Under the pieces are notes generated by a model. That model had not been told where the DNA came from. It searched no databases and was given only the letters and a program-made list of their open reading frames with translations. This document shows positions 35,236 through 37,563 of a stretch of 64,000 nt of DNA, one piece after another (position 1 is the stretch's first letter; each line of letters begins with the position of its first letter). The stretch covers positions 641 to 64,640 of the forward strand of contig JANNVO010000053.1 in assembly GCA_031414475.1 (NCBI GenBank), read 5' to 3'. The position numbers were made by a program, and so were the translations under genes. Source of the stretch: Rickettsiales bacterium (GTDB lineage: Bacteria > Pseudomonadota > Alphaproteobacteria > Rickettsiales > Rickettsiaceae).

Positions 35236-37563
35236 TTGATCTTTATAATTAATAATTTAGACTATTGTCATATTAGTTTAAATAAAATTTTTATGAAAAG
35301 AAATTTTTTAACAACAACGAATGTTATCTCTCAAGAGAATTTGCAGGATGCTCTATATAATAATGATTCTAACTTTCTAAAAAAGTTACTGCTCGAAAAT
35401 AAAGCTAATATAGAAGCAAATGACTATAATGATCCCCCTTTATATACGGCTGTACGTGAGAACCATCCAGACATCGTAAAGTTACTACTCGAAAATAAAG
35501 CTGATATAGAGGCATGGAATTTCGAAGACGATACCCCTTTACATATAGCTGTACGTGAGAACCATCCAGACATGGTAAAGTTACTGCTCGAAAATAAAGC
35601 TAATATAGAAGCAGATGGTCAAGACGAATTTCCTTCTTTAGATCATGCTGTAGCACATGGGTATACAACAATTGTAGAGCTCTTGCTCAAGAACGGGGCT
35701 AATATTATAATGAATCCTGACGTTCCTAATATGGTTTTGTACAACGCAGTTAGTGATGGATATTTAGACATTGCAAAGTTATTATTGCTCGAAAATAAAC
35801 TTGATATAGACAGACTGAATGAGGATAATAATAACGCTTTACATATGGCTGTACGTGAGAACCATCCAGACATGGTAAAGTTACTGCTCGAAAATAAAGC
35901 TGATATGGAAATAAAGGATTTTGGGGGTGAGACCCCTTTACATATTGCTGTAAACAAGGGCAATTCAGACATCGTAAAGCTATTGCTTGAAAATAAAAGT
36001 AGTATAAAAGCAAAGGATGAATATGGTGATAATTCTTTAGATCTTGCAACAGATAGAAGGGATAAAGACCTGATGAAGCTATTGTTCAAGCAAGATAAAG
36101 AGATTGGATGGGACGAAAAATTATATATTACTTTGAATTCTCAATCAACGTCAGAATCGCTACCTTCTGTATTGCAGAAAGTAACTTACTTACTAAACGC
36201 TGGAGCTAGACCCAATGCTAGCGTAAATAAACATAAGTTATTTTATATTGTTTTAACAAAATATAACTCTACATTCGTTGAGTTATTTGTTCAATTTGGC
36301 GCGGAAATTAACCCGTCAAGTGATGATTATGAATTGACTCCATTAACGACCGTCATCTTGGCTAATAGACAAGATAGTATTGACTATTTGATTAATAATG
36401 GAGCTAAAGTTAATCCAATCAACAAAAAATTGTTCTCTACTCCTTTGTCTGCAGCAATGTGCTCGAAAAATCATGAAGTGATTCTACGTTTACTTGATCT
36501 TAAGGCAGATTTAAAGCCTACGAATTCAATTACTCAACCTATAGAATGCATTAAGCATGACACGCATGAAACAGTTATTAACCGTATAATAAATCATCAT
36601 CAGATAAATAAAAAAGACTTGATAGCACTTATCACACCTGTACATAAGATGAATAGTCAAGACCTAGATGATTTATTACTAGAAAAAATATTGCATCTTG
36701 ATAAAACTTTAGACCCTACAGCTATACAGCTCTTTAAATTGTTTTCTGTGAATGCAAAACCTGTCCTCCGGATCTTTTATAAACTATCAGAGACCACTGA
36801 TGTAAAAAAGCTGATTGATCAATTTGCAATAGATTTATCAAATAAGGGAGATGTTATAGCTACAATTCAGGCATCTTTAAGTGCGCATCATAAAGTCCTA
36901 AGTCAGTATTTAGTTACGAAAGGGGGCTCAGATTTTGTCGATCTTATTAATAAACAAGAAAATCATGAAAATTTTATAAAGACCTTGCTCTTCCAAGGAA
37001 TTAAAATAGAATTTAAGTATAATAATTTTGTTTTAACTTCGCAAACTTATGGGGACGAATCACACAAACCTACAAATACACCTGATATTAAGACAAAGAG
37101 CAAAACTTATTTCCAGGATGGTAAAATTTATTTTAATAAAAATAATGAATTGGTTGAAAATGGAAAAGGATTATATGTCTTAGATAAAAAAGGAACTTTG
37201 TATTTTTGTCATTTCAATAATGTCTCAATTATCGATGGTTGCGATAGTACTGTCCATCATAGTTATTTTATCAAAGGAAAACCGTCAAAAGATCTATACG
37301 GAATCGGTAGACCTATAGCTAGTGGTGGAAAGTTGCGTATAAAAGATGGTAAAATTATTGAAATAGATAATGAAAGTGGACATTATTTCCCTAATACAGA
37401 CCAACTTAAATTAGCTACTTATTATCTTATGAAGCAAAATGTGGTTGATGATGCATTGGCTTGTTTATCTTATTCTTATCAAAATGAACATTTCGATATA
37501 AGTCAAATACAAAGCCTTAATATAGGCGAGATACTTGATCATTATAGTGATCTTACTTATTAA
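35236..37563 (+). CDS. Ankyrin repeat protein with C-terminal HHS..SGHYxP domain (ATG 35293 likely)
   Basis: Multiple TPLHxAV...IVKLLLENKA repeats; tail HHSYF..IASGGKLRIKDGKIIEIDNESGHYFP. Confidence 0.88.
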   Translation: MIFIINNLDYCHISLNKIFMKRNFLTTTNVISQENLQDALYNNDSNFLKKLLLENKANIEANDYNDPPLYTAVRENHPDIVKLLLENKADIEAWNFEDDTPLHIAVRENHPDMVKLLLENKANIEADGQDEFPSLDHAVAHGYTTIVELLLKNGANIIMNPDVPNMVLYNAVSDGYLDIAKLLLLENKLDIDRLNEDNNNALHMAVRENHPDMVKLLLENKADMEIKDFGGETPLHIAVNKGNSDIVKLLLENKSSIKAKDEYGDNSLDLATDRRDKDLMKLLFKQDKEIGWDEKLYITLNSQSTSESLPSVLQKVTYLLNAGARPNASVNKHKLFYIVLTKYNSTFVELFVQFGAEINPSSDDYELTPLTTVILANRQDSIDYLINNGAKVNPINKKLFSTPLSAAMCSKNHEVILRLLDLKADLKPTNSITQPIECIKHDTHETVINRIINHHQINKKDLIALITPVHKMNSQDLDDLLLEKILHLDKTLDPTAIQLFKLFSVNAKPVLRIFYKLSETTDVKKLIDQFAIDLSNKGDVIATIQASLSAHHKVLSQYLVTKGGSDFVDLINKQENHENFIKTLLFQGIKIEFKYNNFVLTSQTYGDESHKPTNTPDIKTKSKTYFQDGKIYFNKNNELVENGKGLYVLDKKGTLYFCHFNNVSIIDGCDSTVHHSYFIKGKPSKDLYGIGRPIASGGKLRIKDGKIIEIDNESGHYFPNTDQLKLATYYLMKQNVVDDALACLSYSYQNEHFDISQIQSLNIGEILDHYSDLTY

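Follow-up and report, generated by a model that had tools for sequence, protein, structure and literature searches.

What does a symbiont protein do when its ankyrin repeats are followed by a conserved, histidine-containing domain? The question is raised by a gene on contig JANNVO010000053.1 of a Rickettsiales bacterium (Rickettsiaceae; assembly GCA_031414475.1), within a stretch of 64,000 nt (contig positions 641-64,640) that is referred to below as the window. A preliminary description of this DNA had read the product as a His-dependent enzymatic effector domain delivered with an ankyrin targeting module, and this remains the best-supported reading, the catalysis being the part that we infer. 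In its fuller form, the protein would be a modular effector made of ankyrin repeats and an enzyme of the Tox-EDA39C family, a statement to which, the detail of RNase activity set aside, a probability of about 0.6 is given. Residue numbers follow the longest open reading frame (ORF), which encodes 775 amino acids (aa) from a TTG start; the 756-aa numbering, which begins with MKRNFL at Met20 as in the identical database protein P0002, is obtained by subtracting 19.

Homologues and family assignment of the C-terminal domain

A phmmer search with aa 590-775 against 1.84 billion cluster representatives returned 236 proteins at E<=1e-3, of which 86 reached E<=1e-10 and 7 reached E<=1e-30, and the motif SGHYxP was present in nearly all of these homologues. 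Among the 121 domain copies of the family alignment built here (alignment A1), H675 and G698 were invariant, and S714 (117/121), G715 (120/121), Y717 (117/121) and P719 (111/121) were nearly so. The second histidine, H716, was kept in 114 copies, the exceptions being 6 with Arg and 1 with Ser, and position 692 was occupied by Lys or Arg in 84. The histidine equivalent to H675 was also invariant in a second family alignment, and no acidic residue was conserved across the family alignment. As judged from the sequences, this motif pattern is well beyond chance. The doubts expressed in the preliminary description, that the domain might have no profile match and that its histidines might vary among homologues, are thus answered by the number of homologues and by the column counts. 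All of its motif positions were also exact (GLYVLDKKG from 645, HHS at 674, ASGG at 695 and SGHYFP at 714). Its span of 37150-37563 (aa 639-775) captured these motifs but began too late, the folded unit starting at about aa 596-620 (around window position 37021). The conserved core covers about aa 620-750, and an N-terminal extension of about 30 aa is restricted to the symbiont subfamily.

No Pfam or NCBIfam family was matched by the last 320 residues of the protein, nor did any emerge for the C-terminal domain, alone or across the 121 members at E<=10; stray weak matches (BT_2262-like_C, DUF357, PQQ_2, Ntox43 and JmjN) touched at most 4 members each. A search for longer homologues gave 9 matches, in which chance candidates were dominant and plant proteins were absent, and tblastn against plasmids gave only two weak matches, in Nocardia and Eleftheria.

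The domain very probably belongs to Tox-EDA39C, because the published written definition fits and the relatives are shared. This family was named on computational grounds by Zhang, de Souza, Anantharaman, Iyer & Aravind (2012, Biol Direct 7:18; PMC3482391), whose text defines it as an alpha+beta domain with the pattern "H, Sx[HS]Y". Membership was judged against this written definition and by the shared relatives. In the window domain, a histidine in the N-terminal half (H675) is followed in the C-terminal half by S714-G-H716-Y717. The fold class agrees as well: mixed strands and helices were obtained in two AlphaFold2 models, one of the window domain computed on alignment A1 (predicted local distance difference test, pLDDT, 93.8; predicted template modelling score, pTM, 0.89) and one, modelled independently, of a tandem copy from a protein of the filamentous haemagglutinin (FHA) type (pLDDT 90.3), which is about 29% identical to the first (27% in alignment A1).

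As described in the text of the 2012 paper, the family occurs in polymorphic toxins delivered by type II, V, VI and VII secretion systems (T2SS, T5SS, T6SS and T7SS), together with HINT and RHS modules and with Imm-SuFu immunity proteins. The same text places it in effectors of intracellular bacteria (Wolbachia, Ehrlichia, Odyssella, Rickettsia, Legionella and Amoebophilus), names plant EDA39 as the type of the eukaryotic proteins that end in this domain, and records fungal homologues (PMC3482391). The window domain thus shares with the published family its structural class, its His and Sx[HS]Y signature and its spread over polymorphic toxins (RHS, HINT, T5SS), intracellular effectors and plant EDA39-type proteins, and no essential difference of the window protein was seen. 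The ankyrin fusion, the presence of four paralogues in one symbiont genome, the plasmid and IS6 location and the N-terminal extension do not figure in the text of the 2012 paper. What is described here is a further member of a family that has been known since 2012 to extend to Rickettsia-type effectors and to plant proteins.

Relatives in toxin tips, which the preliminary description had mentioned, were indeed recovered. The domain directly follows an RHS core (PF03527) in P0349 and P0366 and a PT-TG pre-toxin module in P0281, precedes PT-HINT in P0133, and lies near the C-terminus of giant two-partner secretion (TPS)/FHA proteins (P0082, P0089 and P0042). In two independent metagenome loci, a gene for a protein of 121-122 aa stands just downstream of the RHS gene tipped with this domain (L020 4886-5254 and L021 4820-5185). 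The two products are 41% identical (E 5e-28), match no Pfam family and are unlike the product of the gene after the main RHS of the same locus; they are candidate cognate immunity proteins, distinct from Imm-SuFu.

Some arrangements of the domain among these relatives were unexpected. Giants of the TPS/FHA type (P0095, P0120, P0089, P0042, P0068 and P0082) carry 2-6 tandem copies, each with the histidine and SGHYxP, and in P0095 (4667 aa) six copies are spaced about 490 residues apart; multiple copies of one toxin domain per exoprotein are unusual and absent from the 2012 paper's text. The domain is not always a C-terminal tip, since it is N-terminal in the proteins of L018 (4878-6524; Ca. Finniella inopinata), P0017, P0018 and P0026, where it is followed by 150-330 residues to which no function is assigned. 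An odd pairing was seen in P0039 (762 aa), a fusion with a starch/glycogen-synthase N-terminal domain (Glyco_transf_5, E 3.5e-25); the label 'starch synthase' on one 224-aa relative was probably carried over from such fusions, and this is the label that P0003 bears.

The likeness to plant IQM proteins, also pointed out in the preliminary description, was borne out both by sequence and by predicted fold. A 'Calmodulin binding protein' of Zostera marina (P0388) matched the domain profile at E 1.4e-24 and the window protein itself in a pairwise BLASTP comparison at E 8e-08, in which HHS aligned to HHS and SGHYFPN to SGHYHPN. When the ESM Atlas was searched with the model, Streptophyta clusters labelled 'Calmodulin-binding family protein' or IQ were matched with TM scores of 0.64-0.65 and a root-mean-square deviation (rmsd) of 2.6-2.8 A over 135-137 residues. 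We take EDA39 to be IQM1. The plant proteins IQM1-6 have the domain, the HHS and SGHYxPN motifs and the predicted fold in common with the window protein, but possess an N-terminal calmodulin-binding IQ motif where the latter has ankyrin repeats. The IQ motif, searched as [FILV]Qxxx[RK]Gxxx[RK], was found neither in the window protein nor in 150 bacterial relatives and, since it is lacking, the window protein is no IQM protein. This gene family has been studied for stomatal control, flowering, auxin response and defence. In the IQM papers it is termed plant-specific, the bacterial toxin family goes unmentioned and the C-terminus is likened to trichosanthin, a likeness that none of the present searches supports.

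Proposed mechanism and use in a host cell

In the proposed mechanism, the ankyrin repeats would pick a host partner and the C-terminal domain would act on or near it. The active site would be formed by H675 at the start of a short helix, the S714-G-H716-Y loop after a beta-hairpin and a basic residue, Arg692 here and Lys in most members, which is a candidate for the cation that stabilizes the transition state. The most likely chemistry would be a metal-independent attack on a phosphoester with the two histidines as general acid and base. Metal-independent phosphoryl chemistry is suggested by the invariant His, the S-G-H-Y loop, the mostly basic residue, the glycines and the lack of conserved acidic residues, and the text of the 2012 paper indeed predicts for the family an RNase A-like nuclease activity that needs no metal and works through two histidines (PMC3482391). 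The comparison with two-histidine RNases of the RNase A type holds for this predicted chemistry only: two His, a frequent basic residue at position 692 and no conserved acidic metal ligands are shared, and the structure is absent from the fold matches. RNA is kept as the leading candidate substrate because antibacterial use of the domain in RHS and FHA proteins suggests a substrate common to all cells. On these grounds the domain is likely to be a His-dependent enzyme, and RNase activity specifically is put forward tentatively, at somewhat less than even odds.

A host-directed role is fairly likely for the protein, given that it carries ankyrin repeats, that no immunity gene was found, that the genome has a type IV secretion system and that the named relatives are protist endosymbionts. 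The ankyrin region would presumably bind a host protein and thereby aim the enzyme. The assembly (1.96 Mb, 96.5% complete) encodes four copies of the domain, the other three being ankyrin fusions of 566 and 646 residues and a protein of 334 residues in which Pfam recognizes no domain; in all four, SGHY and the first His are intact. The paralogues have no conserved partner gene, since the neighbours differ at each (among them lepA and rpoC fragments, another ankyrin gene and a DUF2608 gene), and none of the four is adjacent to a small gene suited as a conserved immunity protein. Neither a SUFU-type immunity gene nor a homologue of the RHS-linked candidate immunity protein was found in the genome. 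Type IV secretion genes (VirD4 and two VirB4) are present, and the protein would most likely be exported by this system into the eukaryotic host cell, which would explain why no immunity gene adjoins any of the four paralogues.

The pairing of ankyrin repeats with this domain recurs in P0005, P0006, P0007, P0012, P0019 and two further paralogues of this genome, and these recurrences include several unrelated metagenomic proteins. The named relatives, obtained by a scan of genome contigs with a 12-sequence alignment, are protist endosymbionts, namely Ca. Megaera venefica, Ca. Finniella inopinata, Ca. Bandiella numerosa and one Rickettsiales metagenome-assembled genome. Among 400 other sampled Alphaproteobacteria genomes, 11 had a match, and 9 of these 11 are <=2.0 Mb. 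The Dot/Icm Ank/Leg effectors of Legionella and the Anks of Rickettsiales likewise combine ankyrin repeats with a variable C-terminal module in a genome with type IV secretion. With the NCBIfam models of Legionella Ank effectors (AnkY, AnkH, AnkG and others), the window protein scored 42-104 bits against cut-offs of 450-1400; being far below these, the matches reflect the repeats alone and not orthology.

Fold comparisons and rival readings

Several results weigh against an RNase-like, host-directed effector. In Foldseek searches of the PDB, neither model found a match at E<=1e-3 or a known RNase fold, so that the check by Foldseek proposed in the preliminary description yielded no solved structure at that threshold. 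VIA-align comparison of the two models with 48,161 chains reached Z scores of at most 4.0 and 4.9, again without an RNase fold. Beyond the 2012 prediction, no experimental paper on the domain was found in the literature, a literature search on the SGHY motif gave nothing relevant, and no measured activity was found for any family member. The Arg or Ser that replaces H716 in 7 of the 121 copies would be at odds with a second histidine that is strictly essential. The IQM papers report only calmodulin-binding regulators and protein-protein interactions, and the plant proteins indicate that the domain can function where toxicity is not evident. The protein showed no recognizable secretion signal, and the absence of immunity genes from the genome corresponds to two queries at 96.5% completeness.

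Searches of the PDB by single sequence gave no match, and no RNase A-like chain appeared in four fold searches, although such a fold may be present and go unmatched. The strongest VIA-align match of both models was human PHPT1 (2nmm_A), of the Janus/Ocnus family (PF05005). The window model aligned at Z 4.0 with an rmsd of 4.3 A over 89 residues and 18% identity (model 39-149 with chain 10-121), and the FHA-copy model at Z 4.9 with an rmsd of 3.2 A over 82 of 113 residues (chain 9-121), 1.1 Z units over its next match. In both cases E. coli polyphosphate kinase was the second match. In the Foldseek results PHPT1 stood at rank 17. The catalytic His53 of PHPT1 stands at the beginning of helix 1, and the phosphate is bound by Ser94 and Ala96 in the loop that follows strand 5 (PMC4817053, PMC11277029). 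The two folds have the same order of elements, with two strands, a helix starting at a His, a hairpin, a Ser loop, a helix and a strand, by which His53, Ser94, Ala96 and the GGG strand of PHPT1 would correspond to H675, S714, H716 and G698 respectively. The core of the EDA39C domain exceeds that of PHPT1 in size, having an additional hairpin at its N-terminus and a long loop ahead of the His, and its second conserved His is lacking at that spot in PHPT1.

On this basis the domain could be a Janus-fold phosphohydrolase acting on phosphohistidine, phospholysine or another phosphoramidate instead of cutting RNA, with His675 as general base like His53 and the Ser714-Gly-His716 loop as phosphate holder like Ser94 and Ala96. 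The recovery of PHPT1 as the top chain for two models only about 29% identical, with site residues at what would be matching topological positions, favours this possibility. The Z scores, on the other hand, lie under the VIA-align noise guide, by which models without a true match typically reach a best Z of 7-8, anything under 5 falling below it. Moreover, hhalign gave a probability under 0.4% for three family alignments against 25 PHPT1 sequences in local and global mode, a negative that is weak but real because the PHPT1 alignment is vertebrate-only (effective number of sequences, Neff, 2.2); none of the 121 members matched PF05005 at E<=10, and PHPT1 was not listed in the PDB profile search. 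PHPT1 is thus the best, though weak, structural neighbour of both models, a likeness that is suggestive but weak. Homology at the level of sequence was rejected from the hhalign result and PHPT1 was kept as a structural lead only. A phosphoramidate hydrolase of this kind is accordingly considered improbable, and the broader claim, that Tox-EDA39C with the plant IQM domain is a very distant relative of Janus/PHPT1, hydrolysing phosphoramidates or protein phosphoryl groups and not an RNase at all, would be slightly less probable still. The domain might instead be a non-catalytic binding or regulatory module whose conserved His, Ser and Tyr hold a ligand or the fold. Such a role would agree with the interactions reported for IQM proteins, with the 2-6 tandem copies in TPS/FHA proteins, an arrangement commoner for binding modules than for toxins, and with a second histidine short of strict invariance. 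It appears unlikely when set against the near-invariant His, Ser, His and Tyr and the Gly-rich loops, which persist from bacteria to plants and are typical of an active site, and against the toxin slot after an RHS core or PT-TG module, followed by a conserved immunity-like gene.

The last alternative leaves the enzyme in place and changes its target: the protein would be a toxin against competing bacteria and not against a eukaryotic host. It draws on the same domain being found at RHS, PT-TG and TPS/FHA tips with candidate immunity genes, and on the T2SS, T5SS, T6SS and T7SS delivery and Imm-SuFu immunity given in the text of the 2012 paper (PMC3482391). The window protein, however, contains no RHS, FHA, LXG, PAAR or pre-toxin module and begins with eukaryote-directed ankyrin repeats, its four paralogues have no immunity-like neighbour, no SUFU or RHS-linked immunity homologue was found in the genome, and the relatives of the organism dwell inside protists. 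An interbacterial use is therefore regarded as very unlikely, and a Tox-EDA39C effector directed at the host is retained.

Two other structural leads were discarded. A PD-(D/E)xK nuclease core, suggested by about 10 of 24 weak matches of the first model (Cas4, AdnA, MGME1, Exo5, BpuSI and RecU-like), was dropped because most of these matches were absent with the second model and no acidic residues are conserved. A profile match in the PDB to the blades of the designed 'Bagel' propeller (E 5.5e-05 summed over eight 30-residue hairpin repeats, with individual E values >=350) was treated as an artefact of beta-hairpin repeats and not as homology.

Genetic setting and significance

The coordinates of the gene, of its parts and of its neighbours are collected in the table. 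The gene is read as mobile cargo because an IS6/IS240-family transposase lies directly upstream. The window is plasmid-like in its gene content, which includes a 2707-residue MobA/MobL-helicase relaxase and a DnaA_N-type replication protein. No Rfam family reached its gathering score anywhere in the window.

Table. Features of the ankyrin/Tox-EDA39C gene and its surroundings (window positions)
Feature	Position	Strand	Basis or remark
Fic/DOC-domain protein	23517..25004	+	E 1.1e-10
IS6/IS240-family transposase, directly upstream	34327..34926	+	Pfam DDE_Tnp_IS240 E 1e-29
Longest frame, 775 aa	35236..37563	+	TTG start 35236; ORF list
Ankyrin/Tox-EDA39C gene	35293..37563	+	ATG 35293, 756 aa; ORF list and database twin P0002
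Ankyrin-repeat region, about aa 37-455, two blocks	35344..36600	+	Pfam Ank_2 E 2.2e-59, Ank 1e-46, six stretches
Linker, aa 456-595	36601..37020	+	no Pfam or NCBIfam match; called helical in the preliminary description
Tox-EDA39C domain (very probable), aa 596-775	37021..37560	+	hmmsearch envelopes, AlphaFold2 model, PMC3482391 definition
H675 codon, first His, within HHS	37258..37260	+	codon checked against DNA; 121/121 sequences
R692 to invariant G698, strand G-[KR]-P-x-A-x-G	37309..37329	+	alignment column counts
S714-G-H716-Y-F-P719, Sx[HS]Y signature with second His	37375..37392	+	codons checked against DNA (S714, 37375-37377; H716, 37381-37383); alignment counts
Spacer between convergent ankyrin genes, 165 bp	37564..37728		no plausible ORF
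Convergent ankyrin gene, 831 aa	37729..40224	-	C-terminal ~400 aa without Pfam match
Autotransporter, 1524 aa	49554..54128	+	beta-domain E 5.5e-35

Other genes of the window also represent host-interaction cargo, namely those of the Fic/DOC-domain protein and of the autotransporter, the latter in a G+C-rich segment. The convergent ankyrin gene next to the one studied here encodes a candidate second effector in the same IS6-flanked stretch. The spacer between the two ankyrin genes includes a stretch markedly richer in G+C than its surroundings and holds only short ORFs of <=47 aa.

The gene thus joins the host-interaction cargo of a plasmid on which ankyrin proteins stand beside a Fic protein and an autotransporter. 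The domain itself is widespread, being found in RHS and two-partner-secretion toxins, in effectors of many symbionts that live inside cells and in an entire gene family of plants, and despite this spread the family has neither a Pfam model nor a solved structure nor a measured activity; research on plant IQM proteins appears unaware of the toxin connection. If the Janus-type alternative were true, toxins and effectors of this family would erase His-phosphorylation, affecting the phosphotransferase system (PTS), two-component systems and NDK of bacteria and, in eukaryotes, signalling that depends on NDPK, and the plant IQMs would be enzymes of this type under the control of calmodulin. The window domain, which is small, confidently modelled, intact in its conserved residues and separable from its ankyrin module, would be convenient for a first structure and enzyme assay, and a result obtained with it would carry over directly to the plant proteins.

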